Below, in pieces: positions 11,634 through 57,725 of a stretch of DNA of 57,725 nt (position 1 is its first letter; each line of letters starts with the position of its first letter). The translations under genes were made by a program, and so were the position numbers. The notes below the pieces were generated by a model. It ran no database searches and had not been told where the DNA came from. It saw nothing but the letters and a program-made list of their open reading frames with translations. This DNA is from a virus (taxonomy: Duplodnaviria > Caudoviricetes): positions 1 through 57,725 of IMG/VR virus record IMGVR_UViG_3300044974_001269. One strand, written 5' to 3'.

Positions 11634-11636
11634 CTG

Positions 11637-11724
11637 CGGAAGAGGTAGGATTCGAACCCACGATACGGTCACCCGTATGACTGATTTCAAGTCAGTTGCC
11701 GTACAACCACTTGGCTACTCTTCC
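11637..11724 (-). tRNA. tRNA-Ser(TGA)
   Basis: GGAAGAG/CTCTTCC acceptor, ACTGA-CTTGAAA-TCAGT anticodon arm, long variable arm, GGTTCGAATCC. Confidence 0.95.
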
Positions 11725-11725
11725 A

Positions 11726-11757
11726 TTTGTTTGATTTATATAAAAATACTATATTTG
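11726..11757 (+). promoter_or_regulatory. Bacteroidetes-type sigma-A promoter
   Basis: TTTG-N20-TATATTTG just before ATG 11762. Confidence 0.6.
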
Positions 11758-11761
11758 TGGA

Positions 11762-12196
11762 ATGAAAACAACATTAATTTCAATTTTTTTGGTTTTGTCC
11801 ATGAACTGTTTTTCACAAACAACGGACTTACTTTATATTCCCAAACAGAAGTCTCTTTTGTTAACTTACAAGAATTGGAGTCCACTAGGATTTTATGTGG
11901 GAGGATATTTTGTTACCAACTTTCCTCAACCTTACATTTATACCACTCCAATATCCATCATCAATCGAGCAGGTATAAACTTAAATTATGATAATAAAAT
12001 TTCTGTTATGGGTGGTTTTTTCATTCAATCATATTCAGACAGTCTTACGCTAAAACCGGATTTGTGGATTAAAATTAACCCTTTGAGAACAATTCTTAAA
12101 ACTGACCGTGGTTTTGATTTTTCTATTGGAATAAATTACATGGAAGAGTTTCGATATGCGATAGGTTTATCAATCCCAATCCGTGGTATTTATTGA
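11762..12196 (+). CDS. secreted small beta-barrel-like protein
   Basis: signal peptide; alternating beta strands. Confidence 0.7.
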   Translation: MKTTLISIFLVLSMNCFSQTTDLLYIPKQKSLLLTYKNWSPLGFYVGGYFVTNFPQPYIYTTPISIINRAGINLNYDNKISVMGGFFIQSYSDSLTLKPDLWIKINPLRTILKTDRGFDFSIGINYMEEFRYAIGLSIPIRGIY

Positions 12197-12198
12197 TT

Positions 12199-12948
12199 AT
12201 GGAAGAAGAGGTTCTCAAATACCTTCAAAAAAAATTCAAGGGAAAAACTATTGAATATGAAGGATATGAATACGAATTTTTGGATGTTTATATCGAAGAC
12301 TATCATTTCACCTTTGTAGTAAACACCATTTTACCTGTGAAAGGTGGTGCATACCTTTTGGAAAAAATTTATGAAAACATAGGGGATATTGTTGGAGACT
12401 TTTTTTATTCTATAGGAAAACAGTTTACTATCTCCGTAGATGTTTTAGTTGACGGTAAGGATGTAAAATCTAGTTATCTACCGTGGGAAGACGTGGTAAA
12501 AATATTTGAGTTAGCAAATCTTAATGCAAACACAGACACTTTTTCTATTTCTGATAAAGATTATAAACACAACTTTGAAATAAAAGCCAAGTTTTATCCG
12601 CCAATAAAAATCTCAAGCGCAGTTCAATTTGATGATGGAGTTGGACTTATCGTTTACATAGAAATTATTGAAATAAAAATGGATGGAGATGAAGTAATGC
12701 CAAATTTAGATACCGAAAGAAATGTTGGTGTTTTCAGGGAGATTATCGAAGAATATAATGATTTTCATAACAAGATTGAAAATATAATGTATGATGTTTT
12801 GGAACCTCAATTACAATTTGGTAGTAATGAATCTTTCTATTATAATGCTTACGTCAGATTCAAGAAATATAAGGAAATTCCGTTAGAAACTAAAAGCGGT
12901 TACGTCGGTGATAAAGAAATTTTTGTTCAATTATTTAATTCTCTTTGA
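12199..12948 (+). CDS. hypothetical acidic protein
   Basis: long ORF; ATG at 12199 after a TATTTAT motif. Confidence 0.75.
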   Translation: MEEEVLKYLQKKFKGKTIEYEGYEYEFLDVYIEDYHFTFVVNTILPVKGGAYLLEKIYENIGDIVGDFFYSIGKQFTISVDVLVDGKDVKSSYLPWEDVVKIFELANLNANTDTFSISDKDYKHNFEIKAKFYPPIKISSAVQFDDGVGLIVYIEIIEIKMDGDEVMPNLDTERNVGVFREIIEEYNDFHNKIENIMYDVLEPQLQFGSNESFYYNAYVRFKKYKEIPLETKSGYVGDKEIFVQLFNSL

Positions 12949-27684: not shown

Positions 27685-28326
27685 TTATGACAATCCCAAA
27701 ATATCATCAGCAATTTCTTGAGACGAAAGTTCGGTCCATTTTCTCGGGTGTTGATAAGACCAAAAAGTCTTCCAATTACCAAACCAAATTAAATCTTTTT
27801 TTCTGGTGTCTAAAGTTCTAAAGTCAGTGCTGTCTTTTGGAAATCTTCCGATGTTATACGTTTTATATACATCTATGTATGGAATGTTATAGTAAGTGAT
27901 AAAAGATTTATTTATGTCATCGAAAGGAGTTTCTACAATTGGAGTACAACCATGGATTCTAACATATTCTTGAACTCTTTTTACCCAAAGTTTGCATTCC
28001 TCATAACTTTCGGTTTTCAAAATAAATCGAACTAATTTACCGTAATCATTGAATCGGTGTGAAAAAATCCTGTTCATACCGTGTTCAGGAACATATTTGT
28101 ATATAAGAATTTCCCAATCACCATAAAATTCTATAGGTAGTTTGAAATATGGACAAAAAGATTTTTTGGGAGATATAGGATAAGACTCTACTGTGTATGG
28201 AGTTTCATCATTTTGAAGATACTCTTTGACTTCGACGTAGTAAGATTCGTCAGGACCTGACATTCTAACAAGAATACCTTTATCGAAATTATAAATTATA
28301 CGTTCATTATTCAGTGCTATATACAT
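27685..28326 (-). CDS. hypothetical protein resembling the N-terminal part of TibC-like heptosyltransferases
   Basis: GKLVRF...W...V.EY...HGC..IVET and QEIADDILGL pattern; no catalytic C-lobe. Confidence 0.45.
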   Translation of the reverse strand: MYIALNNERIIYNFDKGILVRMSGPDESYYVEVKEYLQNDETPYTVESYPISPKKSFCPYFKLPIEFYGDWEILIYKYVPEHGMNRIFSHRFNDYGKLVRFILKTESYEECKLWVKRVQEYVRIHGCTPIVETPFDDINKSFITYYNIPYIDVYKTYNIGRFPKDSTDFRTLDTRKKDLIWFGNWKTFWSYQHPRKWTELSSQEIADDILGLS

Positions 28327-29899
28327 AATCCTCTATGACTAATTTATCAATTATTTTTTTATTTAGAGCTCTGAAGGCTTGATTTGGATTTTCAATAATA
28401 GGTTCGTTGTGAGAATTAAAAGATGTATTCAATAAAACAGGAATTCCTGACAATTTATAATACTCGTTCAAAATTTCCCAAAACTTAGGTAAATTATCTT
28501 TGACAACAATTTGTGGTCTAGCAGTTTTATCAGATTTTTGAATTACGGCAGGAATTTCACTTATCCATTCCTCTTTCGTTGAATAACATAACGTCATGAA
28601 TTCTGATGTATATTTTGATTTTGAACAGGTGAAAATTTCATCAAATTTTTCTTCCAAAACGATGGGTGCGAAAGGCATTGTTTCGTATCTATTTAACCTT
28701 TGATTCAAAATACCATGTGTTCCTACATCTGTGGGACGTACTAAAATACTTCTTGCCCCCAAAGCTCTTGGACCGTGTTCAGAACCTCCTTGGAACCAAC
28801 CAATTATTTTACCTTCATTCAAATCTTTAGCAATTTCCTCTACATTATATGGTGATTTGAAAAAATTGTAGTTTTTAGAAATATTTGAAATTTTTTCATT
28901 TGTATAAGAGGGTCCTAACAATACGTTTTTGAGTTTTTTAGGTAATGGCCATTCACCAAGTTCATGTGACTTTTTTATGCAAGCACCTAATGCTAAACCC
29001 TCATCTCCCATAGGAGGAATTACGTAAATTTCTTCAACCCAATCCAATTCGTTTATCTGTTGATTGAGTTTTACATTGGCAAATAAACCACCCGCAAAAC
29101 AAAATTTTTTGTAATCAGGATAAAGTAAATGTAAGTCTTCGATAAAACGTAACATTAAGTCGTTAGTAAGTTTTTGAAGATTGTAACAGTATATTTCTCT
29201 TTTTTCTTTTGTAGAAAAATAACCGTCCTTGAACATCATATCACAAACAAATTTTGTTTTCCACGCTGTTGTTGTTGGATAGAAGTTTAAATTTTTATAA
29301 TTGATGAGGGAATTTAAAACATCATAAATTTTTTGGTCGAAATGACCATCTGCTGCCATTCCCATAAGTTTTCCTTCATCTTTACACATTCTCCAAATCC
29401 CTTCATTATATGCATCATAACCCATAATAGAGGACGTGCTAAAACCCCACAAATGAGACAAACTACCACAAGAATTATATGGGTATTGTCTCAAAAGTTG
29501 CATTTTTCCATCTTCACATAAATAAATTTTCATTACTGTATTTTCTCCACCTCCATCGTAAGTAATGGTAATTACTTTACCCATCATACCACTTGTGAAA
29601 TAAGCTCCGTAGGCATGAGCATCGTGATGAGAACATTTTTCGTAATCTAAATCTGTAATTTCTTTTACATATTTTTCACTAACAGGTGCGGCAAAAACTC
29701 TGTAATCTGAATTTTCAACTTTATAACCTGTGGTTTCTTCAATTTTCTTTGTAGATAAAAGTGCAGAGGTCTCATGTATGTCACCAGCTTTTTTTCTTGA
29801 CATTCTTTCTTCTTCTAATGCTGATACTATTTCGCCGTCTTTTACAACCGCACAACAACCACTATGTGAACCACAATAAAAACCAAAAATTAAACTCAT
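28307..29899 (-). CDS. carbamoyltransferase (NodU/CmcH/TobZ family)
   Basis: EEERMSRKK, HHDAHA, DGGGE, EGKLMG, AGGLFANVKLN, GPRALGARS, LNTSFN. Confidence 0.93.
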   Translation of the reverse strand: MSLIFGFYCGSHSGCCAVVKDGEIVSALEEERMSRKKAGDIHETSALLSTKKIEETTGYKVENSDYRVFAAPVSEKYVKEITDLDYEKCSHHDAHAYGAYFTSGMMGKVITITYDGGGENTVMKIYLCEDGKMQLLRQYPYNSCGSLSHLWGFSTSSIMGYDAYNEGIWRMCKDEGKLMGMAADGHFDQKIYDVLNSLINYKNLNFYPTTTAWKTKFVCDMMFKDGYFSTKEKREIYCYNLQKLTNDLMLRFIEDLHLLYPDYKKFCFAGGLFANVKLNQQINELDWVEEIYVIPPMGDEGLALGACIKKSHELGEWPLPKKLKNVLLGPSYTNEKISNISKNYNFFKSPYNVEEIAKDLNEGKIIGWFQGGSEHGPRALGARSILVRPTDVGTHGILNQRLNRYETMPFAPIVLEEKFDEIFTCSKSKYTSEFMTLCYSTKEEWISEIPAVIQKSDKTARPQIVVKDNLPKFWEILNEYYKLSGIPVLLNTSFNSHNEPIIENPNQAFRALNKKIIDKLVIEDYVYSTE

Positions 29900-31566
29900 G
29901 TAGGTCTTTTGATTAAAAAATTATTTATGACTAAATAATCTAACTTTCTATTGATAGTTGTTGCTATCGCGTCTGAAGGGGTCTCAACTATCGGTTCGGA
30001 AGGTCCGTTGAAACTTGTGTTCAAAAGGACTGGTACCCCTGTTCTTTCGTAAAAACTTGAAATTAATTCGTAGAATTTGGGGTTAGATTCTTGTGTCACA
30101 GATTGGTGTCTCGCAGAGTTATCAATGTGAACAACTGATGGGATTTTTTCTCTCCATTCCTCTTTCACCTCTGTTGTGACGAGCATAAATGGTGAATAAA
30201 CAGAAGATTCAAAAATTTCAGATTGATGTTCGAATAAAACGGCAGGTGCGAAGGGTCTGTACCACTCTCTACCTTTTATGTCCGAATTGATATGTCCAAT
30301 CATCCATTTAGTTATTGGTGAAGCAATGATTGACCTATTACCTAAAGCTCTTGGTCCGATTTCTGAACCCCCTTGAAACCAACCTATAACTCTATTCTGA
30401 GTGAGCCAATGAGAAACTTCATTTATAAGGTCTGAGAAATTTTCATATTCTTTGAATTCAATTTCAGGATGATTATTGAGTGCCAATAAAATTTCCCCCC
30501 TTTCGTATGATTTACCAAAATATGGGTTAATCAAAGAAGTTTCAGAGATATCGGTAATTTGTTGATATCCATACCACGCACAACCTAAAGGTATTCCTGA
30601 GTCATCAGAAGGTGGTAAGAAAAAACAATTTTTATATAAACCAGATTCTAAAATTAATTGATTGGAGTTACAATTCAAAAAAGAACCGCCAGCAACACAA
30701 ACATTATCAGAATTGGTAAACTTTTTTGCTAATTTTGCCAATATTAGGGAGGATTTTTCTTGCCCTTTTTGGTACATACCTGCGACACATGCTCTTGAAA
30801 AAAAGTCAGATTTCCAAGTAACCTTCGGATAGATAAAATTGTTATAAATTCTAATATCATCCTCTAATTCTTCCACAAAGCTGGGACCCTCGTCAACAAT
30901 ACTTTGGTCTGCAAAAGAGGCTAAACCCATCAGTTTTCCAGCACTCCAAGTATGTGTCTTTTCTTCGTAAACCAATTGTAAAGTTGCTTCAGCATAAACT
31001 GTACCTAATGAGACGTCATCATTGGTTGCCCAAGGTGTGGGAAATTTTATCCACTTTTTGTAAATCTCTTCGTAAGAATTTTTTTTGAAATGATAAATTG
31101 ATATTCCTTCTGCCCAATCTTGATTAGGGTCTAAAGACCATTTTTTTGGGTCGTACCATTTGTGTGTTGTATTCTTGTAAGATATTACACTCCCTGATGC
31201 GTCTGCAACAATTACTGCTGCTTCATCAAATCCTGAACTAAAAAAAGTTGAATAAGCGTGAGCTAAATGGTGAGGTATAAACAATAAATTTTCTCTTTTC
31301 AAGTTAGGAAAAACTCTGAAAAATTTTTCGGGAGCATCATCAATTATTTCAGTTGTTGAATATACCCAAAGGTTGATGTCTTGATGTGAAATTCCTAATG
31401 CATTCAAACAATAATTTATTGACTCAAGTGGGATTAGTCCCCCTTGGTAAGCACCGTCATGTTTGATGCGTGACAAACGTTCTTGAGTAATACCCACAAG
31501 AACTTTACCATTTTCAATTATTACCGCACCTTTATCATGACCTACTGAGAAGCCTAATACTTTCAT
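29896..31566 (-). CDS. carbamoyltransferase (NodU/CmcH/TobZ family)
   Basis: HD, QERLSRIKH, HHLAHA, GKLMGLA, GPRALGNRS, REWYRPFAP, LNTSFN. Confidence 0.94.
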   Translation of the reverse strand: MKVLGFSVGHDKGAVIIENGKVLVGITQERLSRIKHDGAYQGGLIPLESINYCLNALGISHQDINLWVYSTTEIIDDAPEKFFRVFPNLKRENLLFIPHHLAHAYSTFFSSGFDEAAVIVADASGSVISYKNTTHKWYDPKKWSLDPNQDWAEGISIYHFKKNSYEEIYKKWIKFPTPWATNDDVSLGTVYAEATLQLVYEEKTHTWSAGKLMGLASFADQSIVDEGPSFVEELEDDIRIYNNFIYPKVTWKSDFFSRACVAGMYQKGQEKSSLILAKLAKKFTNSDNVCVAGGSFLNCNSNQLILESGLYKNCFFLPPSDDSGIPLGCAWYGYQQITDISETSLINPYFGKSYERGEILLALNNHPEIEFKEYENFSDLINEVSHWLTQNRVIGWFQGGSEIGPRALGNRSIIASPITKWMIGHINSDIKGREWYRPFAPAVLFEHQSEIFESSVYSPFMLVTTEVKEEWREKIPSVVHIDNSARHQSVTQESNPKFYELISSFYERTGVPVLLNTSFNGPSEPIVETPSDAIATTINRKLDYLVINNFLIKRPT

Positions 31567-32869: not shown

Positions 32870-33556
32870 ATGAAGTTTTTACTCTTTTATAGTGATTTGT
32901 TGTCTGAAGCGAGAATGATGGGGAACGAAAAGTTTGATTGGGTTGCCTCCAACATGGGAAATTGGTTATTTGACGAGTTATTTGCAAATCCTGATAAAAT
33001 CCAATCTTTACCTAACATGGACCAATTTTCTACGTGGGTAAGTTCAAAAATCAAAAAAACACCAACTTCTACTGACTTAGTTGACAATTTGGATTTGATG
33101 GAAACATTTCTCCATAGACTTGACCCGAAAGAATCTTCTGCCTTCATTAAATCTGTAATTTCAACTTTTCCAATAATCTTGAATAAAATCACAAGATATG
33201 GTAAACCTGAAGTTATGGGAAAAAGAGGAAGACCAATGGGTTCAAAAAACAAACCTAAACCTGATATGTTGGGTGTAGACATATTGAAAACCGTAAGACC
33301 TGTCAAAACAACCACCCAAATTCCACAAGAACCTCAACCTGAAATGGAAACAAAAAGGAGAGGGAGACCAAAACAATATGACGACGACCTCACCGCGATT
33401 GAAAGAAGTAAGTTCAGAAGAGAGGGACCAGCAATGATACAAAGTTTGGAAGCAAAAGCTCAATCACTTGATAACGAAGTGACATTCATAATTCAAAGGA
33501 TAAAAAAAATTATGGGTGATATTGAGAAAAGAAAAAAGTTTTTCGGTATATCTTAA
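32870..33556 (+). CDS. AT-hook-containing protein
   Basis: GKRGRP and KRRGRPK motifs. Confidence 0.8.
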   Translation: MKFLLFYSDLLSEARMMGNEKFDWVASNMGNWLFDELFANPDKIQSLPNMDQFSTWVSSKIKKTPTSTDLVDNLDLMETFLHRLDPKESSAFIKSVISTFPIILNKITRYGKPEVMGKRGRPMGSKNKPKPDMLGVDILKTVRPVKTTTQIPQEPQPEMETKRRGRPKQYDDDLTAIERSKFRREGPAMIQSLEAKAQSLDNEVTFIIQRIKKIMGDIEKRKKFFGIS

Positions 33557-33589
33557 ATTTTTAATAATTTAGCTTTATATTTCAATGTT

Positions 33590-33663
33590 CGGGAAATAGT
33601 ACAGTCCGGTAGTATGCTTGGTTTGGGACCAAGAGGTCGTAGGTTCGAATCCTGCTTTCCCGA
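33590..33663 (+). tRNA. tRNA-Pro(TGG)
   Basis: CGGGAAA/TTTCCCG, CTTGG-TTTGGGA-CCAAG, GGTTCGAATCC. Confidence 0.95.
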
Positions 33664-33668
33664 CAAAT

Positions 33669-33745
33669 GTCTTCTTAGCTCAGTCGGTTAGAGCGAGTGA
33701 CTGTTAATCACTAGGTCCTTGGTTCGAGCCCAAGAGAGGACGCCA
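33669..33745 (+). tRNA. tRNA-Asn(GTT), CCA encoded
   Basis: AGTGA-CTGTTAA-TCACT; cloverleaf. Confidence 0.95.
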
Positions 33746-33748
33746 CAA

Positions 33749-33821
33749 GCGGAAGTAGCTCATTTGGTAGAGCAACTGATTTGTAATCAGTAGGTCGCAG
33801 GTTCGATTCCTGTCTCTGGCT
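33749..33821 (+). tRNA. tRNA-Thr(TGT) with mismatched acceptor stem
   Basis: ACTGA-TTTGTAA-TCAGT; acceptor GCGGAAG/CTCTGGC has G:G and A:C mismatches. Confidence 0.8.
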
Positions 33822-33835
33822 CAATTTTATTCGGC

Positions 33836-34339
33836 ATGTCTTTATTCAAACAAGAAGTCATAATGACCAAAGATGAATGTGATTTAGTATTGAAAAAATA
33901 TAAATCACAATCTCAAGAATATGAAACCGGACCTGACAAAAACTTTGGGTATGTCTCTATTAATGTTTTTGAGGATGAATGGCTATTGAGAATATTATTG
34001 TCATTTGTGGAAAAAGAAACAAACCTGAAAGTTGAATGGCACAAACCCACAAAAGATTTTTTTAAGGAATTTTGGTTACAAACATATCAGGAGGGTGATA
34101 GGTTCAATAAACATATGGACAAGTATCACGGAAGAAAATATGCCCTTGGTGTTTTGTTAAACACTGAATTTGAAGGAGGTGATTTTATATGTTACAAAGA
34201 AAATGAAATTCACAAATTTGATAAAATAATTGGTAATTGTTATATTTTTTCAGTAGAATTAGTTCACGAAGTAACAAAAATTACCTCGGGTGAACGGAAC
34301 GTACTGGTTATGTTTGTGAATGAAAATCAAATAGCGTAA
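33836..34339 (+). CDS. 2OG-Fe(II) oxygenase
   Basis: Y..GD.F.KHMD, LLN..FEGGDF, HEVTKITSGER. Confidence 0.85.
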   Translation: MSLFKQEVIMTKDECDLVLKKYKSQSQEYETGPDKNFGYVSINVFEDEWLLRILLSFVEKETNLKVEWHKPTKDFFKEFWLQTYQEGDRFNKHMDKYHGRKYALGVLLNTEFEGGDFICYKENEIHKFDKIIGNCYIFSVELVHEVTKITSGERNVLVMFVNENQIA

Positions 34340-34342
34340 ATT

Positions 34343-34576
34343 ATGGGAATTTTTGGAACTTATTACTTAATCTGTTTAGTTTATTGCGTGTTAATGTTCA
34401 TAAAAAGTTGGACTAGAGAATCTAGAGAAGGAGGATTGGGTATTAGTCCAGGTTTGGATACATTAGCAATTTTAATCATATGTTGGGCTTTAGCTCCCGT
34501 TGACATTTATCTAAGATGGGTAAAATTATACCGTGAAGCTGAAGAAGCAAGAAGAAGAAATGATAAAATTCTATAA
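34343..34576 (+). CDS. small membrane protein
   Basis: two TM helices. Confidence 0.75.
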   Translation: MGIFGTYYLICLVYCVLMFIKSWTRESREGGLGISPGLDTLAILIICWALAPVDIYLRWVKLYREAEEARRRNDKIL

Positions 34577-34930
34577 ATGGCACATCCAAACTTACACGCA
34601 AAATCTTCGGCAAAGAAATTTGGAGGAAAACCTGAAGATTACATTCATCTTCACGAATGGTTAGATGAAACAAAAAGTTGGATTGGAGATTCTTTACACA
34701 GAGCCTTCAGACACCACAGTGAAGGTATTTTCGAAATGGAACAAAAATTTGGTACGGAGTTTGTCAACAGTGATGGAAAAGTCGTTTATACGAGATATGT
34801 TGGAGAACAACACGTTAAAGAGGACTGTAACGATTATATTCCTTCGGCAAAAGAATGGATTATAAACATAGGGAATGGAACAAGGCCAAAGTGGATGTTG
34901 AAAACAGTCAACTTAGAGTTCCAAGATTGA
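34577..34930 (+). CDS. DUF6915-like protein
   Basis: HP..HA.SSAKKFGGKPEDY..H.W.D, HR..RHHSEGIF, EQHVKED. Confidence 0.85.
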   Translation: MAHPNLHAKSSAKKFGGKPEDYIHLHEWLDETKSWIGDSLHRAFRHHSEGIFEMEQKFGTEFVNSDGKVVYTRYVGEQHVKEDCNDYIPSAKEWIINIGNGTRPKWMLKTVNLEFQD

Positions 34931-34953
34931 TATTTATTTAGTAAAGGTTCAAA

Positions 34954-35664
34954 ATGGAAGAAATACTAACTCCCGAAGATAAAAAAGTTCTGAATTTAAT
35001 TTCAAACTATATAAGGTCCAATGGTTTAAGAGAGGGTCAAATTGAAATTGATATGGACTACGGCGATTTGGATATTGAACGGATAAAGAATGTCACAATT
35101 TTTTCAAATTCCTACAATGTAGAAATACCTGAAGAGTTAATCGAAATATGTTATAAAATTCTCAAACACATTGATGAGAACCAAGGTTTGGATGTCGATG
35201 TAGACGATTTGAATTATGAAAAGTTAGAAATGGAAATTGATACTATACAAAAATCAATTACGGCTTCACATTTTATTTCCTATTTTGACCAATCTGATTC
35301 CACCTCTACTGAGTGGACTGAAGATGATTATGAAGATTCGGATGAAAACCCAATCACCAAAATGTTCAATGAATTGGAAAACGAACCAGACATAATTCCG
35401 GTCGATGGTCAATTACAACTCAGATATAATGGTTCTGGTGATAGTGGTTACCTTGAAGATTATTTTGAGTCTGGAGGTGCGGTCCCTGCAAGTGTATCTG
35501 ATTGGTGTTATGAGCAATTACAAAGTCTTCACGGTGGATGGGAAATTAATGAAGGTTCACAAGGATATTTTATTTTTGATTTGAACAACAAAACAGTTGA
35601 ATTGAACCATACTATGAATGTTGAAGAATCGGAATCAAAAACTTTGTATGAGGAAAAATTTTAA
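34954..35664 (+). CDS. DUF6878-like protein
   Basis: YNGSGDSG and GWEINEGSQG motifs; adjacent to DUF6915-like gene. Confidence 0.75.
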   Translation: MEEILTPEDKKVLNLISNYIRSNGLREGQIEIDMDYGDLDIERIKNVTIFSNSYNVEIPEELIEICYKILKHIDENQGLDVDVDDLNYEKLEMEIDTIQKSITASHFISYFDQSDSTSTEWTEDDYEDSDENPITKMFNELENEPDIIPVDGQLQLRYNGSGDSGYLEDYFESGGAVPASVSDWCYEQLQSLHGGWEINEGSQGYFIFDLNNKTVELNHTMNVEESESKTLYEEKF

Positions 35665-35667
35665 ACT

Positions 35668-35883
35668 ATGGAAAGATTGTTTTCACCCGTAAGTTTGATT
35701 TCAATAACTCATGAATTGAAAGAAAGAGCATTGCAAATTCAATACATTGGAGATATGTCTGATTTGGGAAATGAGATTGGACTTTGTGTTTCTAAATATT
35801 ATGAAAATATGAACGAAAACGAAATAGAACTTTTCGTTCAAGGTTTCAAACATGGTGCTAGAATTCCCAAAAAAATTGATTGA
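35668..35883 (+). CDS. hypothetical protein
   Basis: packed ORF. Confidence 0.7.
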   Translation: MERLFSPVSLISITHELKERALQIQYIGDMSDLGNEIGLCVSKYYENMNENEIELFVQGFKHGARIPKKID

Positions 35884-35910
35884 CAATTTATTAAAAAAGG
35901 AATATATTTA
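35880..35910 (+). promoter_or_regulatory. promoter of leader-peptide/tRNA transcript
   Basis: TTGACA-N17-TATATTTA. Confidence 0.7.
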
Positions 35911-35916
35911 TTGTAG

Positions 35917-35997
35917 ATGAAAAATGCGAACTATCATATAGAGTTTGTTCAACAACAAGAGATTTGTTGGGAGACTAACCTATGCGTAGTTCGGTAA
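35917..35997 (+). CDS. putative leader peptide MKNANYHIEFVQQQEICWETNLCVVR
   Basis: 26-codon ORF 6 nt after the promoter; last 4 codons form the antiterminator strand. Confidence 0.7.
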   Translation: MKNANYHIEFVQQQEICWETNLCVVR

Positions 35998-36064
35998 AGA
36001 ATAAACTCCTGAAGAGTTATATATACAACCTCGGACTACGCAAGTGGTTCGGGGTTTTTTTTTT
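35983..36064 (+). promoter_or_regulatory. attenuator: antiterminator 35983-35994/36031-36042 versus terminator 36027-36056 + U tract
   Basis: 12-bp helix TGCGTAGTTCGG:TCGGACTACGCA competes with a 13-bp GCAA-capped hairpin followed by T10. Confidence 0.75.
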
Positions 36065-36092
36065 GTGGTATGAAATATTGGTCGTAAATTTG
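36062..36092 (+). promoter_or_regulatory. Bacteroidetes-type promoter directly before tRNA-Glu
   Basis: TTTG-N19-TAAATTTG. Confidence 0.65.
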
Positions 36093-36098
36093 CTTCAT

Positions 36099-36170
36099 GC
36101 TCGGTTCGACTAGTGGTTAGGTCACCACCCTTTCACGGTGGTTGCACGGGTTCGAATCCCGTACCGAGTA
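36099..36170 (+). tRNA. tRNA-Glu(TTC)
   Basis: CCACC-CTTTCAC-GGTGG; GGTTCGAATCC. Confidence 0.95.
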
Positions 36171-36175
36171 CATCT

Positions 36176-36248
36176 GGTAATCAAGCTAACTTAGTAGAAG
36201 CGTAGGACTGAAAATCCTGAGGAGTTGGAGCGTAACCAACGATTACCA
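36176..36248 (+). tRNA. tRNA-Phe(GAA), non-canonical D/T loops
   Basis: GGTAATC/GATTACC, TAGGA-CTGAAAA-TCCTG, T arm GTTGG-AGCGTAA-CCAAC. Confidence 0.85.
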
Positions 36249-36254
36249 CAACAA

Positions 36255-36326
36255 GGTCGGGTGGCCGAGTGGCTTAGGCGGAGGTCTGCAAAACCTTCTA
36301 CGTAGGTTCGATTCCTACTCTGACCT
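36255..36326 (+). tRNA. tRNA-Cys(GCA)
   Basis: GAGGT-CTGCAAA-ACCTT; U73. Confidence 0.95.
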
Positions 36327-36333
36327 CAAACAC

Positions 36334-36405
36334 GGTGGTTGTAGCCTAATGGTAGGGCGGAAGTTTGTGGTACTTCATGTGAGAGTTCGATTCTCTCCAA
36401 TCACA
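36334..36405 (+). tRNA. tRNA-His(GTG)
   Basis: GAAGT-TTGTGGT-ACTTC; encoded G-1, A73. Confidence 0.92.
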
Positions 36406-36411
36406 CACAAC

Positions 36412-36485
36412 GGAAGTATAGCTCAGCTGGTCAGAGCGCTATTCTGATACGATAGATGCCAGTGGTTCGAATCCACTTACTTCCA
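36412..36485 (+). tRNA. tRNA-Ile(GAT)
   Basis: GGAAGTA/TACTTCC; CTATT-CTGATAC-GATAG. Confidence 0.93.
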
Positions 36486-36486
36486 C

Positions 36487-37008
36487 ATGAGACGGAAAAT
36501 TATTTTCATAGATGTTGATGGTCCTTTATCTTGGGGAACATGGGGTGATGGAAAAGTTACGCTCAACTGTGGCTCCGAACTATTCAAGATGCCTTATCCA
36601 TGGGTAGAAGAAGATTGCCAAGCTCTCCGTAAAATTCTCGACGAAAGTAATGCTAAATTAGTTTTGAGTTCTGATTGGAAAAAACATTTTAGTTTCAGAC
36701 AAATGAAAACTATCTTCGAACGATATGGTATGTCAGGTCACCACCTTATCGATACAACTACTCATCAGGATTTATGGACAAAATTGAGTAGACCCTCTAT
36801 TGATTGGGAAAGAGCTGCAGAGATTGTGAAGTGGGTAAAGGATAATAAGATTTCCAATTGGATTGCGATTGATGACCTTAATTTAGCAAACGAGTTCAAA
36901 TGGATGAAGATACCACAATGGAGACATGTACAGGTTGATGGAGATTGGGGACAAGGTGGTAGACTCAGAGATAAAATTGATGAATGTATAAAAAAACTTG
37001 AAAGATGA
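36487..37008 (+). CDS. HAD domain protein, Swiss-Army-Knife RNA-repair-like
   Basis: IIFIDVDG, LVLSSDWK, R..EI..W, WIAIDDL. Confidence 0.85.
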   Translation: MRRKIIFIDVDGPLSWGTWGDGKVTLNCGSELFKMPYPWVEEDCQALRKILDESNAKLVLSSDWKKHFSFRQMKTIFERYGMSGHHLIDTTTHQDLWTKLSRPSIDWERAAEIVKWVKDNKISNWIAIDDLNLANEFKWMKIPQWRHVQVDGDWGQGGRLRDKIDECIKKLER

Positions 37009-37559
37009 AAATTGACAGAAATAGACTAGCATGGTTTTTGAAAAACATAAGGGTTGATGACCCAGGAGAACTTACAGATGAAGTTCTTGTGGATAAGCTT
37101 GCAAATTATATGGAAGTTAATCCTGATTTTGTTGATATTCACGGTGTCAGTCACCCTGGTCGTTTCAGTTATCATACTGTTGGGTATGGTGTTTTTTCTC
37201 TTCTTGGAGAAAGATATAGAATGGGAAGAGTTGAAATATTTGACCGACAAGAAGATACAGGATATGCTGTTAGTGAAGGCGCTTATTGTATGCCGTTTGT
37301 TGCAGCAAGTCAATTCGAGGATTTTATTGAATCTTTGGAAACAGACCTTCCGATAAACATAGAAATTGGTTCCCACAAATGGTGTGAATATGAATGTGCA
37401 AAAGACCTCGGTTTCGAAAACGTTGAAGAGATGAGAAACCCTGAAAAAGTCAAAGAATATCGTAAAAAGAAAAACGATATCCACGCACAAGAACAAGGAT
37501 ATAAAGATTTTGATGATTTGTTGAAAAATAGTAAATTTGGAAATCTTTTGGTTAAATGA
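37005..37559 (+). CDS. hypothetical protein
   Basis: ATGA overlap with HAD gene. Confidence 0.75.
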   Translation: MKIDRNRLAWFLKNIRVDDPGELTDEVLVDKLANYMEVNPDFVDIHGVSHPGRFSYHTVGYGVFSLLGERYRMGRVEIFDRQEDTGYAVSEGAYCMPFVAASQFEDFIESLETDLPINIEIGSHKWCEYECAKDLGFENVEEMRNPEKVKEYRKKKNDIHAQEQGYKDFDDLLKNSKFGNLLVK

Positions 37560-37565
37560 TTACCC

Positions 37566-37638
37566 GCGTGTGTAGCTCAATTGGTAGAGTACTGGCTTCC
37601 AAACCCAGTTGTTTTAGGTTCGAGTCCTAACATACGTG
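37566..37638 (+). tRNA. tRNA-Trp(CCA)
   Basis: CTGGC-TTCCAAA-CCCAG (C:C at 31-39); G73. Confidence 0.9.
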
Positions 37639-37641
37639 CAA

Positions 37642-37767
37642 ATAGGTTGATTGGGGAAGGGATATACGTTAACCTGATGATGGTGGTGGTATATTCGGAG
37701 TTGAAATCATCATAGTAATGCCAATCATAAAAGGAGTTGTCCACTCGACCATCTTCTCCTTTCCTAT
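37642..37767 (+). ncRNA. unknown structured RNA between two tRNAs
   Basis: ATAGG/CCTAT, TGATTGG/CCAATCA, TGATGAT/ATCATCA, AAAGGAG/CTCCTTT nested helices. Confidence 0.65.
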
Positions 37768-37769
37768 AA

Positions 37770-37843
37770 GGACCCCTAGCTCAGCAGGTTAGAGCAACTG
37801 ACTCATAATCAGTAGGTCCACGGTTCGAGCCCGTGGGGGTCCA
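37770..37843 (+). tRNA. tRNA with CAT anticodon, probably Ile2 (lysidine)
   Basis: ACTGA-CTCATAA-TCAGT; paired G1-C72, no initiator GGG/CCC stem. Confidence 0.9.
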
Positions 37844-37895
37844 CAAGGTCTGTCTCTGTTTAGGTTCTTGGATATTTATTAATAAATTATTAATC

Positions 37896-38201
37896 ATGTC
37901 AAGAAATAAAATTTCCTCCGAAGAAAAAGAGTTCATAATCGAAAGTCACATGAGGGCTGGTTATAACACATTTGATTGGTCAGTAATCGAAGAAGATGTT
38001 GACCCTGAATTCGAAATGACTGAAAGAAAAATGGAGAGTGTTGAAGATTTGGAAAAACAAATTAAAGAACTTGAGAAAAAAATTGAGGAACTCAAAGCGA
38101 AAAAATCAAAGAAAAAAGAAACCAAAGAAGACGAGTTTGATAGTTTAGTCGATGCGGATATTGATGTAGAAGACGAAAGAGATTCCTTGGAACAATCTTA
38201 A
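37896..38201 (+). CDS. acidic coiled-coil protein
   Basis: start MSRNKISSEEKE at 37896 after ATATTTAT motif. Confidence 0.75.
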   Translation: MSRNKISSEEKEFIIESHMRAGYNTFDWSVIEEDVDPEFEMTERKMESVEDLEKQIKELEKKIEELKAKKSKKKETKEDEFDSLVDADIDVEDERDSLEQS

Positions 38202-38767
38202 ACTAAGTTTCCTGGTGTTATTACAATTATTTGACCAACATACATGTTTTCAGGTGATATTGGTACTTCAGTAAAATCGAACCAACACCTTGTAAAATCA
38301 ACTTTGTTTACAACTCTCATATCTTCTAAAAAAGGGTCCAAAATAAATAAGTTTTTGTTGTCATACCCAATCACAACGGAAGAGTGTCCTTCAGGCGGGT
38401 CCCCACAGAACCAATCTACAACAACAGGGATTTCACTATCGATATAACTTATTATTTCATCAATTGTAGAATTATTTTTCAAAAATACATTGAAACCCAA
38501 GGTTTCTGCTGCACAGACCATATCTTCACTCTTACATCCCATTTCGTAAGTGTGGTCACAGATTTGGGCGATTAATGCTTCATCATAAAACTTTCCGTAG
38601 TAAGCAAAAATCATTCTGAGAGAAGCTGGCCCACAGGTACTATCATCTGATTGCAGATAGTGAGGTACATCCAAAATTTTGGATTTACCCTCCATTTCGT
38701 TAATAATTTTTTTTACCAAAGAAATTAATTCAACTTCGGACAATAAAATTTTTTTCTGCATATCCAA
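38198..38767 (-). CDS. C39-like cysteine peptidase
   Basis: Q....TCGPASL.M..YYG, GHSSVVIGYD, ILDP. Confidence 0.88.
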   Translation of the reverse strand: MDMQKKILLSEVELISLVKKIINEMEGKSKILDVPHYLQSDDSTCGPASLRMIFAYYGKFYDEALIAQICDHTYEMGCKSEDMVCAAETLGFNVFLKNNSTIDEIISYIDSEIPVVVDWFCGDPPEGHSSVVIGYDNKNLFILDPFLEDMRVVNKVDFTRCWFDFTEVPISPENMYVGQIIVITPGNLV

Positions 38768-38803
38768 TAAATATATTAATTTTACACTTTGAATATTTAA
38801 GTT

Positions 38804-39091
38804 ATGACAATTGGATTAGTAGGAAGTTTGATGTTAACGTTCTGTGGTGTACCAGAGCTAATAAGAACCCTCAAAAATGGACGATGTGATTTAGGTTGGG
38901 GGTTTCTCTTAATGTGGTTCATCGGAGAGGTTCTGTGTACATTATATGGTTTTGATTTGAACGAGGTCCCTCTTATCATAAATTATACCTTCAATTTATT
39001 AGTTTCGGGTATTATGGTCTATTACAAGATACAAGGAGAGTTGCCTGAGCGGTTAAAGGAGCAGTTTGCTAAACTGTGGTCGAGTAATTGA
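38804..39091 (+). CDS. PQ-loop / SemiSWEET-like membrane protein
   Basis: IGLVGS....CGVPELIRT, three TM helices, PLIINY; 3' end runs into tRNA-Ser. Confidence 0.8.
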   Translation: MTIGLVGSLMLTFCGVPELIRTLKNGRCDLGWGFLLMWFIGEVLCTLYGFDLNEVPLIINYTFNLLVSGIMVYYKIQGELPERLKEQFAKLWSSN

Positions 39092-39119
39092 CCCATTGGT
39101 TCGAATCCAATACTCTCCG
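39035..39119 (+). tRNA. tRNA-Ser(GCT)
   Basis: GGAGAGT/ACTCTCC, GCAGT-TTGCTAA-ACTGT, long variable arm. Confidence 0.93.
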
Positions 39120-39123
39120 CATG

Positions 39124-39154
39124 TTGACTCTTTCAAAACCTTTTGATATATTTA
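39124..39154 (+). promoter_or_regulatory. promoter
   Basis: TTGACT-N17-TATATTTA. Confidence 0.65.
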
Positions 39155-39196
39155 TCAATGATACGTTTGTAAAACATTAACCTAAAACAAAAAAAA

Positions 39197-39376
39197 ATGA
39201 AAAAAATTTTCGCTTTGATGTTATTGGCATCTACAATGGTTGCTTGTAACGGAAACGGTGAGTCGGCTGAAGTGAAAGCTGATTCTGCTGTGGTTGCTGT
39301 TGATTCTACAGTTGTTGCTGATTCTGCACTTGTTGTAGATACTGTAAAAGTTGAAGCTCCAGCTGAAGTAAAGTAA
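39197..39376 (+). CDS. small Bacteroidetes-type lipoprotein, 59 aa
   Basis: MKKIFALMLLASTMVAC lipobox; DSA/DST/DSA/DTV motifs; not in ORF track. Confidence 0.85.
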   Translation: MKKIFALMLLASTMVACNGNGESAEVKADSAVVAVDSTVVADSALVVDTVKVEAPAEVK

Positions 39377-39395
39377 TTCAGTTCTTCTGAGAGTT

Positions 39396-39425
39396 AAAAA
39401 AACCCATCAAATGATGGGTTTTTTT
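39396..39425. terminator. bidirectional terminator
   Basis: AAAAAAACCCATC-AAAT-GATGGGTTTTTTT. Confidence 0.8.
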
Positions 39426-40056
39426 ATTTTATGAGTTGTTTTATTCTTTTTACTTCTTCTGCAAAAGGACCTAAAATACTTTTTTGAAACAATTTCTGAA
39501 CCTCAGCAGTATCCAAATTTTTCAAATATTCATCAAAGGAAAGTGGAGATTTCGTACCCAACTTTGATACAATTTTTTTTACTTCATCACCATCACCACC
39601 ATTTTCAACGGAGTTTGTGTCACCTTCAATAAAGTCTTTATTGATAAATTTAAGAGGGTCCACTAAATTATTGTTTTTTTTCAATGCGAAATGAAGGTGG
39701 GGTCCTGTTGTTTTTCCTGCCCCAGGTTCACCAACTTTTCCACCGCTCAATCCAACAATTTGCCCTTGTTCGACCTTGTCTCCCTGTTTTACATCAATTC
39801 TACTCATGTGACAAAATCTACTCCAAAATCCATTTTTATAATCTATATCTATAGTAGCACCACATTTTGGATTGAAGTTAAAGTCCGCAAGCACAACTTC
39901 CCCATTCATAGGAGCTAAAACCTTTGTTCCAACAGGCACAGGAATGTCAACTCCGGGATGAACTTCATCCGGTCTTTTTTCTCCAAAATTTGATTTCAAT
40001 CCCGAGGGAATTGGAACAGGTTCTAAGATGCTTACTTCCGAAAGTATTTTTTTCAT
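39424..40056 (-). CDS. M23 family metallopeptidase
   Basis: H.GVDI...GT.V.AP, HMS, TTGPHLHF. Confidence 0.92.
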   Translation of the reverse strand: MKKILSEVSILEPVPIPSGLKSNFGEKRPDEVHPGVDIPVPVGTKVLAPMNGEVVLADFNFNPKCGATIDIDYKNGFWSRFCHMSRIDVKQGDKVEQGQIVGLSGGKVGEPGAGKTTGPHLHFALKKNNNLVDPLKFINKDFIEGDTNSVENGGDGDEVKKIVSKLGTKSPLSFDEYLKNLDTAEVQKLFQKSILGPFAEEVKRIKQLIK

Positions 40057-40096
40057 TGTATGATAAAATAAATATTTTCGAAAAGGAAAAACTTTA

Positions 40097-40432
40097 TTAT
40101 TTCGGTTTTGTATAACTCAATCTTTTCCCTTTCTTTTTCTCTGAAGGAGTGGGTAAAGGTTTTTTGGGTTCTTTGATGGTATCCAATATTTCTTTTTTTT
40201 GGTTTTTTTTCTGATTGGAGACTAAACCAAACTTGATAAATTTATACCAAATTCTTTCATGTATATAGTATTGAATTGGTTTGTAAACAAGTTCGGCGAC
40301 ACCAAAGGCGGCTCCTAATTTGATAGAACCAGTTGCCCACCACATAGCTAAAAAACCAATGGTGGTACTTAAAATTCTATAACTTATGGTTTTTGCAAGA
40401 TGTCTCTTATAAGATACTTTAAATTGATTCAT
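40097..40432 (-). CDS. DUF2061-like membrane protein
   Basis: RHLAKTISYR...YYIHERIWYK. Confidence 0.8.
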   Translation of the reverse strand: MNQFKVSYKRHLAKTISYRILSTTIGFLAMWWATGSIKLGAAFGVAELVYKPIQYYIHERIWYKFIKFGLVSNQKKNQKKEILDTIKEPKKPLPTPSEKKKGKRLSYTKPK

Positions 40433-40814
40433 ATGAACTAATAAATAGTGGTATCTCTATATCTTGTAAACCTTTGTCTCGGGTGAAATTGATACCCCAA
40501 GCCCTCGGTAATTCTGGCATTTCAGGGTCTTTGTCGTTTAACACAACACGAGTACCACGACCTATACCCATAATCATCTGATGATATTTTACTCCGAGTT
40601 TTTCGAGTTCTTGTTTTGTAAAAAGTTCATATTGTGGGGGTCGAGCCGTTGTGATTACAATGTGGGCTCCTTCATCATATGATTTATTTAAAAAATCAAT
40701 CACATCCTGAATCGGAGTTAGAACTGCTGTTGATAGTTCACTAAATTTTCTGTACTTAACAATAGTACCATCAATGTCCACAAAAAATGTGGGGTTTTTT
40801 GTTATTTTTTCCAT
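40419..40814 (-). CDS. HAD-family phosphatase (PNK 3'-phosphatase-like)
   Basis: FFVDIDGT, ITTARP, LND. Confidence 0.82.
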   Translation of the reverse strand: MEKITKNPTFFVDIDGTIVKYRKFSELSTAVLTPIQDVIDFLNKSYDEGAHIVITTARPPQYELFTKQELEKLGVKYHQMIMGIGRGTRVVLNDKDPEMPELPRAWGINFTRDKGLQDIEIPLFISSYESI

Positions 40815-40816
40815 AG

Positions 40817-40889
40817 AGCAGAAGACGAGGGTCGAACCCGCTACCTACAGCTTGGAAGGCTGTCGCTCTACCAAATGAGCTACTTCTGC
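40817..40889 (-). tRNA. tRNA-Gly(TCC)
   Basis: GCAGAAG/CTTCTGC, ACAGC-CTTCCAA-GCTGT, U73. Confidence 0.95.
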
Positions 40890-40895
40890 TTAAAA

Positions 40896-40976
40896 GATGG
40901 TCAGGGGTTGGTGGAATTAATACCTCGGAGTCGACTTCCTTTCACCGCTGCAGACGGTTACACCAACATGACCACC
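40896..40976 (-). ncRNA. unknown structured RNA upstream of tRNA-Gly
   Basis: GGTGGTCA/TGACCATC and GTTGGTG/CACCAAC closing stems; GC-rich island. Confidence 0.6.
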
Positions 40977-41079
40977 GATTCTTCAAAAAGAAATGTTGTC
41001 GTTATGTTGTTCCCAATTATGACTATCGGGATACTGTTTATGAGTAACGTTAGTTACAATTGTTTTTTTCGAAAATAAC

Positions 41080-52637: not shown

Positions 52638-53036
52638 TGGTGGAGAAGACGGGAGTCGAACCCGTTTCTTGTTCGCGATGACTATAAGTGACTACACGTT
52701 TATTACAACATTGTTTCTCAATGTTCCGAAATATTAAGTTTGATATATGTGGGAACCAAACTTACAAACAACCTGGTCTCAGAGTTATTTTAAAGGAGCT
52801 CTGACCTGTGACCCCTATAACGGACTTCTGTTCCTAGGTTTTATGTCCTTCCCGACCCGAATATTGAGTTCTTAATTCAATTAAGCCTCAACAACAGCTT
52901 CCTCAGCAATTAGACCGAGAGCAGCCATTTTAGCAAAAGTATTGCCAGTTGTGTTTCGAACCAGTTTTTAAGGAGTTAATTCAGCTCCTACGTGCCACCT
53001 ATACCCACACACGCCAATCAATGCCGTGACTTCCCC
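52638..53036 (-). ncRNA. ssrA: tmRNA, tag (A)GNTFAKMAALGLIAEEAVVEA at 52946-52881
   Basis: GGGGAAG/CTTCTCC-ACCA acceptor with G3:U, GGTTCGACTCC T arm, AACT-GGC resume context, TATATTTG promoter at 53056-53063. Confidence 0.93.
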
Positions 53037-55745: not shown

Positions 55746-55769
55746 AAAAAGGGGATTAAATCCCCTTTT
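55746..55769. terminator. terminator at clpC stop
   Basis: AAAAGGGGAT-TAA-ATCCCCTTTT. Confidence 0.7.
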
Positions 55770-57725
55770 CAGTTTTTGATTTTTTTACGAGTTTAATTTC
55801 CTCGTCTTGAAGTTTCAATTCATAGGATTTGTTTTCTAAAACATTTCCTGTTAGTACTTCTTCGGAAATCAAATCTTCGATTTTGTCTTGGATTGCTCTT
55901 TTGAGAGGTCTTGCCCCATAAATTTCGTCAAAACCGACTTTTGCTAGATAGTCAACAATGGTCTCATCAAAAGAAATTTTGTACTTGATTTCCTTCAATC
56001 TTTCAACCAATTTATTCAATTCGATTGAGGTAATTTTTTTGATATGTTCCTCGTTGAGTGTGTTGAACACAATCGTATCATCAATACGGTTTAAGAACTC
56101 GGGTGAAAAGAAATTTTTCATTTCTTTGAGTAACGTTTGTTTTTTTGCTTCTTCATTACCATACTGATTGGTGAAACCAATGCCAGAACCGAAGTCTTGA
56201 AGTTTCTTAACACCTAAATTGGTTGTAAGAATAATTAGGGTGTTTTTGAAATTGATTTTTCTTCCGAGACTATCTGTAACGTGACCATCATCCATCATTT
56301 GGAGAAGAATTGTGAAAACGTCTTTATGTGCTTTTTCTACCTCATCGAACAAAATTACGGAGTAAGGTTTGTTTTTCACTTTCTCTGTGAGTTGTCCACC
56401 CTCCTCATATCCAACATAACCTGGAGGAGCACCAACTAATTTGGATACAGTGTGTTTTTCTTGATATTCACTCATATCTACACGAATAAGTGATTCTTCT
56501 GACCCGAAAATTTCTTTTGCTAACTGTTTCGCTAAGTGAGTTTTTCCGACACCAGTTGAACCCAAGAAAATAAAACTACCGATTGGACGATTTGGGTCTT
56601 TGATTCCAAGTCTATTTCTCTTAATAGATTTAACAATCTTTTTGACTGCCTCATCTTGACCAATAACCTTACCCATCAATTCTTTATCCAAATTGAGCAA
56701 ATTTTTGGTGTCATCGATGGTCATTTTACTAACGGGGATTTTGGTCATATTTGAAACGACATCATAAACATTTTCAAGAATAACAATTTGTTTTTGTTTT
56801 TCCATTTCGTCATCAAACTTTTTCTTCTCGGAGTCTAACTTGTCCAAAAGTTTTTTCTCCTTGTCACGAAGTTGTGCTGCCTGCTCATAATTCTGTTTTT
56901 TTACAACATCGATTTTTTGTTGTTTGATTTCTGCCGCTTTCTTTTTCAAGTCCTCAATTACTTCCGGTATTTTCACTTCAGTTTGCATTCTGGCACCCAC
57001 TTCATCCAAGATATCAAAAGCTTTATCGGGGAATTCTCTGTCTGTGATATATCTTTCAGCGAGTTTCACACAGGTTTCAATTATTTCATCTGAATATTTC
57101 ACTTTGTGGAACGACTCATATTTTGGTCGAATATTCTTTAGAATTTCAATTGTTTCTTGAACTGAAGATGGTTCAACAATCACTTTCTGAAATCTTCTTT
57201 CAAGCGCTCCGTCCTTTTCAATATTTTTTCTGAATTCGTCTAAGGTTGTTGCACCGACAACTTGAATTTCTCCTCTCGAAAGGGCGGGTTTGAAAATGTT
57301 TGAACCGTCCATAGAACCGGCAGAATTACCTGAACCCACGAGTGTGTGAATTTCATCAATGAATACAATAATGTTTGGATTATCCTGTAATTCTTCAATG
57401 ATTACTTTCATCCTTTCTTCGAACTGTCCACGGTACTTGGTACCAGCAACCACAGAGGTCAAATCTAAATTGACAATTCTTTTATCAATTAAGTTTTTAG
57501 GACAATTCCCTTGAACAATCTTGATTGCTAAACCTTCCACGATTGCAGTTTTACCACAACCAGGTTCACCCACAATGATAGGGTTATTCTTTTTTCTACG
57601 AGATAGAATTTGAGCAATCCTCATAATTTCTCTATCTCTTCCAATTACAGGGTCAAGTTTACCCTCTTCGGCAAGTTTATTTAGGTCCCGACTGAAATTA
57701 TCTAACACAGGTGTGTTACTATCAG
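55756..57725 (-). CDS. clpC: ClpC-type AAA+ Clp ATPase (5' end outside window)
   Basis: two Walker A motifs ([16 protein letters not shown]), UVR middle domain, IGF ClpP-docking loop; frame open to window end. Confidence 0.95.

Follow-up and report, generated by a model that had tools for sequence, protein, structure and literature searches.

The DNA analysed here (the window) is the whole of a 57.7-kb IMG/VR virus record (IMGVR_UViG_3300044974_001269); it is a fragment of a jumbo phage and is estimated to hold 19% of the genome. The plus strand of the window carries an array of tRNA genes (tRNA-Glu, Phe, Cys, His and Ile, 36099–36486). In front of the array lie a short open reading frame (ORF) of 26 codons and a stop (35917–35997), which we call the leader, and an intrinsic terminator (36027–36064). 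Behind it come a gene for a HAD_SAK_2 phosphatase-like protein (36487–37008), a 184-codon ORF (37005–37559), tRNA-Trp (37566–37639), a structured non-coding RNA (ncRNA; 37640–37769) and a tRNA with the anticodon CAT (37770–37844). We propose that the leader and the terminator probably constitute a ribosome-mediated attenuator that provides feedback control of the phage tRNA supply. A preliminary description, made from the sequence alone, had read the element as a leader-peptide attenuator in front of a tRNA array, and this reading is supported by all three of the comparative tests that the description had suggested: by the conservation of the ORF, by covariation and by paralogous leaders whose cores match their own arrays.

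The leader is preceded by a predicted promoter, P1 (35880–35911, plus strand), with a −35-like hexamer at 35880–35885 and a −10-like box at 35903–35911. The site at 35880–35908 matches 11 of 12 consensus positions and was the best of 21 in a 5-kb scan. Its −10-like box stops 5 nt before the start codon, predicting a near-leaderless transcript. The ORF itself can fold into a hairpin (segments 1:2, 35927–35993) with a bottom helix of 35927–35933 paired to 35987–35993 and an apical hairpin at 35953–35969; its minimum free energy (MFE) is −22.3 kcal/mol (z = −3.46 against dinucleotide shuffles). The apex is formed by codons 13–18 (Gln, Gln, Glu, Ile, Cys, Trp; 35953–35970), referred to below, after their proposed role, as the sensor codons. 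The last four sense codons (segment 2, 35983–35994) are complementary to 36031–36042 over 12 contiguous pairs, two of them G-U, and a run of this length was reached in one of 1000 shuffles of the upstream 110 nt. Further downstream are a small hairpin (36004–36018) and the terminator (segments 3:4), in which a stem of 13 pairs (36027–36056, six G-C) is capped by a four-base loop and followed by ten consecutive T (36055–36064). Folding of the 152-nt stretch yields the ORF hairpin, the small hairpin and the terminator at z = −4.85. The preliminary description had reported the promoter, the 26-codon ORF, the terminator with its ten T and the 12-bp pairing at these positions, as well as leader codons GAG (three times), TTT, TGT/TGC, CAT, ATT, TGG and ATA. 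All of these are correct; the ORF also appears in the ORF listing.

Relatives of the locus were gathered in several ways. A search with the HAD protein gave 49 viral loci, many of them on contigs of 200–335 kb. The leader region was found by nhmmer in 17 of the 49, each time just 5′ of tRNA-Glu. Together with pattern scans of viral and metagenome contigs, the HAD-anchored set gave 23 distinct leader sequences (alignment A2), from which L088 and L082 were excluded as too close to contig ends; the near-duplicates L037 and L092 were left out of alignment A5. The metagenome pattern forces two invariant blocks in the 12 sequences that it added, and our statements on invariance rest on ten HAD-anchored sequences and three variants from an 18-base scan. 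That scan also returned a non-homologue (L094), which was dropped. Ten extra contigs from a 17-base scan of viral contigs proved on alignment to be seven distinct non-homologous chance matches and were likewise discarded. Of the 23 leaders found by leader sequence alone, 22 have tRNAs within 2.6 kb downstream. In most relatives tRNA-Leu genes lie directly upstream, and the leader is therefore inside the tRNA region, not at its head. A covariance model of the leader recovered both leaders of a complete 321-kb relative (the second is described below); two other matches examined in that genome were non-leaders, one a plain terminator and the other an unrelated stretch.

The leader frame is open in all 23 distinct homologues. 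It has 26 codons in 19 of them, 25 in one, 28 in two and 32 in one; the start codon is kept in 22 and replaced by an alternative start in the remaining one. The stop falls in the same alignment column in 19 of 23, and two clades differ in the stop codon used. In all 253 sequence pairs the leader frame is free of stops, compared with only 15 and 10 pairs for the +1 and +2 frames. Synonymous variation occurs at many codons and the ratio of non-synonymous to synonymous substitution (NG86) is ∼ 0.52. Conservation is centred on the sensor codons, whose amino acids are kept in 21–23 of 23 sequences. Codons 13, 15 and 16 show synonymous changes among the unbiased variants while their amino acids are unchanged. 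The peptide outside codons 13–18 varies freely between clades, and in one lineage, that of the two 28-codon leaders, a 2-nt deletion after codon 20 alters the frame of the tail and leaves the core intact. Conservation also extends to His 7, Ser 11 and Val 24–25, which do not belong to the core.

The alternative helices are conserved in the same set. When the ORF is folded alone, a hairpin of −14 to −26.5 kcal/mol sequesters segment 2 in 23 of 23 sequences (median z = −3.26 against dinucleotide shuffles). The 5′ partner of segment 2 in this hairpin differs between clades, and in one clade includes the start codon. Because the register differs, the 1:2 helix was judged by the MFE of each sequence and not by column-wise covariation. 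Folding with the 5′ part masked and the 3′ arm of the terminator left off gives a helix of segment 2 with segment 3 in 23 of 23 sequences, and this helix encloses the small hairpin every time. The antiterminator columns (35983–35994/36031–36042) are paired in 89.5% of cells, compared with 24–39% when the partner is slid by one to three columns. Three pairs have changed on both sides, and none of 500 shuffles matched either the paired fraction or the covariation score; the covariation signal comes mostly from a single split that separates two clades. For the terminator, which shows little variation, the paired fraction is 95.7% of cells. The small hairpin is invariant in sequence in the ten HAD-anchored homologues and may act as a pause element. 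It had also been considered as hammerhead-like, a reading that was dropped as Rfam found no ribozyme.

The sensor codons correspond to the tRNAs that are encoded downstream. The constant members of the array are tRNA-Glu, Cys and Ile, and tRNA-Trp after the HAD gene: tRNA-Glu follows the leader in 21 of 23 sequences, and Cys, Ile and Trp are present wherever the sequence extends far enough. With tRNA-Gln also downstream in many relatives, all of codons 14–18 (Gln, Glu, Ile, Cys, Trp) have counterparts among these tRNAs. The gap from the last sensor codon to segment 2 is 12 nt, roughly as far as a ribosome extends past its A site, and is the same in the leader of a second array, described next. 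A ribosome reach of up to 12 nt past a stop codon is quoted in a passage of PMC4833913.

Further support comes from paralogous leaders. In relatives, a related leader unit heads a Pro-Asn-(Asp)-Gly-Thr-(Ala) array, and a scan with its terminator gave ten distinct sequences. Its ORF has 30–34 codons and is open in ten of ten, with insertions and deletions of whole codons; the other frames contain one to five stops. These leaders show the same three-state folding pattern as the Glu-array leader. Their antiterminator is paired in 95% of cells, compared with at most 52.5% when slid, and contains two compensatory pairs; the ORF hairpin has a median z of −1.99. The core of the Pro-array leader is a run of 9–10 codons that specifies only amino acids of that array, which was reached by 1–8 of 20 000 random peptides of the window's composition. 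In a relative whose array lacks tRNA-Asp and tRNA-Ala, neither residue appears in the core run. In another relative, L095, the run includes Asp and no tRNA-Asp lies within 2.6 kb. Both leaders are present on six contigs, and there each shows enrichment for the amino acids of its own array (Fisher p = 0.00044, 0.015, 0.011, 0.011, 0.06 and 0.0022; five of six below 0.05), and since the contigs are related these values are essentially one between-family contrast seen six times, not independent tests. A third leader type precedes Ile-Trp-[HAD]-Cys-His arrays, and Ile, Trp, Cys and His are over-represented in it (p = 0.00038 and 0.0022). A relative of this third type, located by the leader covariance model in another complete phage, is 22 codons long and precedes an array of 11 tRNAs; 15 of its 21 residues are cognate, with a run of nine that 469 of 20 000 random peptides reached. 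The family to which the leader belongs thus comprises at least three or four paralogous types in these phages.

A conserved ORF, three alternative helices, covariation, spacing and a match of codons to tRNAs in several leader–array pairs are observed. They are consistent with the following model. RNA polymerase would start at P1 and transcribe the 26-codon leader. Segment 2 would be unavailable in two cases: in an untranslated leader it would be held within the ORF hairpin, and once a ribosome has moved on to the stop codon it would be hidden under that ribosome. In either case the terminator at 36027–36056 would form and transcription end. When charged tRNA for Gln, Glu, Ile, Cys or Trp runs short, a ribosome would stall at codons 13–18. 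It would keep the ORF hairpin unwound, leaving segment 2, just past its leading edge, to pair with the emerging 5′ arm of the terminator. The resulting antitermination would allow polymerase to continue through the five tRNA genes of the array and the HAD gene, and probably as far as tRNA-Trp. Such a circuit would be a negative feedback loop, in which ample charged forms of the sensed tRNAs, whether of host or phage origin, shut synthesis off and a shortage of even one of them switches it on. Such a shortage might be brought about by anticodon nucleases, by host shut-off or by a mismatch in codon usage. We infer that the ORF is translated, that stalling leads to read-through, and that P1 and a second promoter, P2, act in different phases of infection.

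P2 (36063–36092, plus strand) is a predicted promoter of host type that follows the terminator and ends 6 nt before tRNA-Glu. It fits the Bacteroidota two-box pattern, and the preliminary description had already placed a second promoter here. The two-box pattern is that of Bacteroidota housekeeping promoters, and promoters were called by pattern only. The pattern occurs 25 times in the window compared with 6.6 ± 2.6 times in shuffles, and this four-fold enrichment points to a Bacteroidota host. Further examples precede tRNA-Trp (37510–37539, plus strand, within the 3′ end of the 184-codon ORF), a tRNA-Arg (44005–43975, minus strand) and a transfer-messenger RNA (tmRNA; 53085–53056, minus strand). 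In the alignments P2 varies only at two free positions of its −7 box. The nine-base box of P1 is of another kind. It occurs ten times in the window (13569, 23012, 35903 and 39147 on the plus strand; 47943, 45392, 43852, 38775, 8037 and 188 on the minus strand), against 5.2 ± 2.5 in shuffles. These boxes lie mostly 5–15 nt before ORF starts, and three come directly after terminators. A seven-base core is invariant in alignment A2 and before the leaders. The P1-type box looks like a phage promoter class that yields near-leaderless mRNAs. P2, read by the host enzyme, might then supply an early, basal dose of tRNA, to be followed by a demand-controlled dose from P1 and the attenuator.

Several observations weigh against attenuation or limit its scope. 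The most important is the position of the host-type promoters. Predicted promoters at 36063–36092, in the gap between the terminator and tRNA-Glu, and at 37510–37539, before tRNA-Trp, intervene where attenuated operons have none, and a Bacteroidota-type box also follows the T run directly in nine of ten Pro-array leaders. To judge from these patterns, the array very probably has attenuator-independent transcription. Given these promoters, attenuation can govern only part of the transcription of the array. The preliminary claim that the array depends on read-through is weakened accordingly, a caveat that the description had itself raised. A promoter after the terminator makes it less probable that the attenuator is the sole control; it does not make attenuator-like working less probable. 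Secondly, the MFE structure of the full-length RNA is the terminator in 23 of 23 sequences, and read-through must therefore be kinetic, as in classical attenuators. The leader has no Shine-Dalgarno sequence and its 5′ untranslated part is ∼ 2 nt, so that its predicted translation is suggested by conservation and not by an initiation signal. Each sensor codon is present once, unlike the runs of classical leaders.

The correspondence between leader codons and the tRNA set, put forward in the preliminary description, is strong between leader families, where cores match their own arrays, and weaker at finer resolution. Within the Glu-array family the tracking of variable tRNAs is weak: most of the tests were not significant (Phe, p = 0.03), and His, Val and Lys residues occur in the leaders regardless of whether the tRNA is present. 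Two longer leader-like ORF types in front of other arrays, one of 52 codons (L003/L033) and one of 35 (L024), show no enrichment (p = 0.7–0.9). The 35-codon type gave no significant complementarity in the shuffle test, and the 8-bp complementarities of the other leader types arise in 5–11% of shuffles each. Individual relatives also deviate, and L096 and L046 amount to natural ‘mutants’ of the leader. In L096 (2990–3180) a variant ORF and a weakened terminator stand before protein genes, and no tRNA was found in the 8.3-kb locus, which extends 5 kb downstream of the leader. In L046 (3540–3680) the start codon and core have decayed and the terminator, P2 and tRNA-Glu, Cys and Ile are kept. L084 is a recombinant in which the ORF comes from one clade and the terminator loop from the other; two covarying pairs are lost and eight antiterminator pairs are left.

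In the main rival explanation the unit is a small gene in its own right. From P1, the ORF and the terminator would come a 26-residue peptide or a trans-acting RNA of ∼ 140 nt, the array would be expressed from P2 only, and the proximity of unit and array would be a matter of gene order. The promoter–ORF–terminator layout is indeed complete in itself, P2 is conserved and L096 retains the unit without tRNAs. There is also a precedent for such products: PMC6614838 and PMC7968998 describe, for the trp attenuator of Sinorhizobium meliloti, a trans-acting attenuator RNA and a functional leader peptide, so that both a terminated transcript and the peptide it encodes can function independently. We nevertheless consider a small gene unlikely, since it leaves unexplained the compensatory complementarity between segment 2 and the terminator 5′ arm in two paralogous families, a peptide tail that can be frame-shifted with its core kept, and the array-matched cores of the paralogous leaders.

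It is also improbable, in our assessment, that the leader senses translation without being specific for these tRNAs, whether through a nascent peptide that stalls the ribosome on some other signal or as a general report of ribosome activity. Conservation at the amino acid level suits a peptide function as well as a tRNA function, the sensor codons occur only once each, His 7, Ser 11 and Val 24–25 are conserved outside the core, and the leader uses 16 amino acid types. An arrest motif is not expected to change with the array, however, and the Pro-array core is quite different from that of the Glu-array leader and built only from the amino acids of its own array; the Ile-Trp type behaves likewise. 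Finally, the terminator might be an ordinary one, an insulator that ends upstream transcription before the tRNA promoter, with a fortuitous frame and a chance complementarity. A terminator would be expected here anyway, given the tRNA-Leu genes directly upstream in most relatives, and L046 has kept its terminator without an ORF. This explanation is already disfavoured and we regard it as very improbable: the ORF is open in 23 of 23 and ten of ten sequences with the other frames closed, the 12-bp complementarity is matched by one shuffle in 1000, covariation is found in both families and the ORF hairpin is stable (median z = −3.26).

Ribosome-mediated attenuation, the reading that we prefer, has its model in the amino acid operons. 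Attenuators of this type are those of trp, his, pheA and leu, and of thr and ilv, which are multivalent. The phage element resembles the trp, his, thr and ilv leaders in having a short ORF (predicted to be translated), a 1:2 hairpin, a 2:3 antiterminator and a 3:4 intrinsic terminator. As in amino acid operon leaders, the regulatory codons are placed so that a stalled ribosome would free segment 2 and the stop codon so that a finishing ribosome would cover it. As in thr and ilv, several amino acids would be sensed by one leader. All the testable structural features of the leader-peptide attenuator class are found here; the absence of a promoter after the terminator is not. There are further differences. 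The gated genes are tRNAs and not enzymes, so that the loop would act on tRNA supply and not on amino acid supply; the sensor codons are single or in mixed runs and not repeats of one codon; and the element is carried by a phage, with a probable Bacteroidota host and a second promoter after the terminator. PMC3082878 deals with a leader-peptide attenuator of the class, pheL.

Systems that control the translation apparatus offer a second comparison. The pheST leader and T-boxes tie its expression to tRNA charging or amount through conditional termination, as the phage leader would. T-boxes bind uncharged tRNA directly and without a ribosome, which the proposed mechanism of the phage leader needs, and both systems control synthetases, whereas the phage leader precedes tRNA genes. 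An Rfam cmscan of 33000–41000 at E up to 1 gave tRNAs and chance-level matches only, with nothing over 35880–36098 and no match to a T-box or an amino acid operon leader family. The region does not resemble a deposited phage closely: a megablast search of 35000–38500 against 50,697 phage records gave no match, and no close relative was found among them.

The tRNAs, the HAD gene and the ncRNA downstream of the leader are those that the preliminary description had listed. The tRNAs were all found by both ARAGORN and Rfam; the one with the anticodon CAT may be an Ile2 or a Met tRNA. The RNA-repair-like HAD gene begins one base past tRNA-Ile and matches Pfam HAD_SAK_2 (E = 2e-19), the HAD domain of ‘Swiss Army Knife’ RNA repair proteins. 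Its place in the unit is no more than suggestive of the link to host anticodon nucleases and RNA repair that the preliminary description had put forward. Its linkage to tRNA arrays is not obligatory, because 22 of the 49 HAD_SAK_2 loci have no tRNA within ∼ 4 kb; the other 27 do. The 184-codon ORF that follows it has no Pfam match. The ncRNA predicted between tRNA-Trp and the CAT-anticodon tRNA is conserved and structured. Its 130 nt have nhmmer matches in 33 loci (E down to 7e-34) and no Rfam match at E up to 1. Of the 26 pairs in the RNAalifold consensus five show compensatory changes, and long stretches are invariant; folding of the single sequence gives a z of only −0.23. A 12-codon frame within it was considered as a further leader and rejected, since the frame is not conserved and the element shows RNA covariation. 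The tRNA cluster of phage T4 contains small stable RNAs (species 1 and 2), to which the ncRNA can be likened by placement, as a non-tRNA RNA within a phage tRNA array. The leader differs from the T4 RNAs in that it is coding and not a stable RNA.

Some other features of the window and its relatives deserve mention. The tmRNA (52638–53036, minus strand; ARAGORN) is encoded by the phage and specifies an eight-residue tag. Also on the minus strand are two tandem carbamoyltransferase-like ORFs (PHROG 1601, 28307–31566), an ORF for a ClpA-like ATP-dependent protease ATPase (PHROG 4871, 55756–57708) and a peptidase C39-like ORF (38198–38767), the last lying antisense inside the tRNA region. In L095, long ORFs of 299 and 213 codons (10205–11104 and 11564–12205, reverse strand) have been inserted between the leader and tRNA-Glu and between tRNAs, and look like candidate homing endonuclease genes. 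Leu-rich frames of 23 codons in two relatives (L002, 2748–2819; L080, 1141–1212) stop 5 nt before tRNA-Leu, leaving no space for a terminator, and may be chance products of T-rich promoter DNA.

Codon adaptation and the countering of host tRNA depletion are the roles widely discussed for phage tRNAs; to our knowledge, hardly anything is known of how their expression is controlled. A search of the full-text literature, with subscription journals and supplements outside its scope, gave no report of leader-peptide attenuation of tRNA genes, phage or cellular. If the leaders work as we read them, they would be the first case found of this mechanism applied to tRNA genes, and the operon would yield the same molecule that its sensor detects. 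A bolder extension, which we offer tentatively and think rather doubtful, is that giant phages might run their arrays as closed loops. Each array would be headed by a paralogous leader with a core spelled in the codons of its own tRNAs, which would sense, one codon at a time, the host tRNAs that are missing, be it from codon-usage mismatch, from host shut-off or from anticodon nuclease cleavage, and allow transcription of only the matching back-ups together with an RNA-repair-type phosphatase; a host-type promoter would give the early basal dose, and a phage-type promoter with the attenuator would take over later. For other phages, the proposed attenuation would provide an annotation rule, a small ORF and terminator whose core spells the downstream tRNA set, by which similar units could be found. 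It would also give synthetic biology a natural multi-tRNA sensor, and would offer a testable handle on what limits translation during giant-phage infection.

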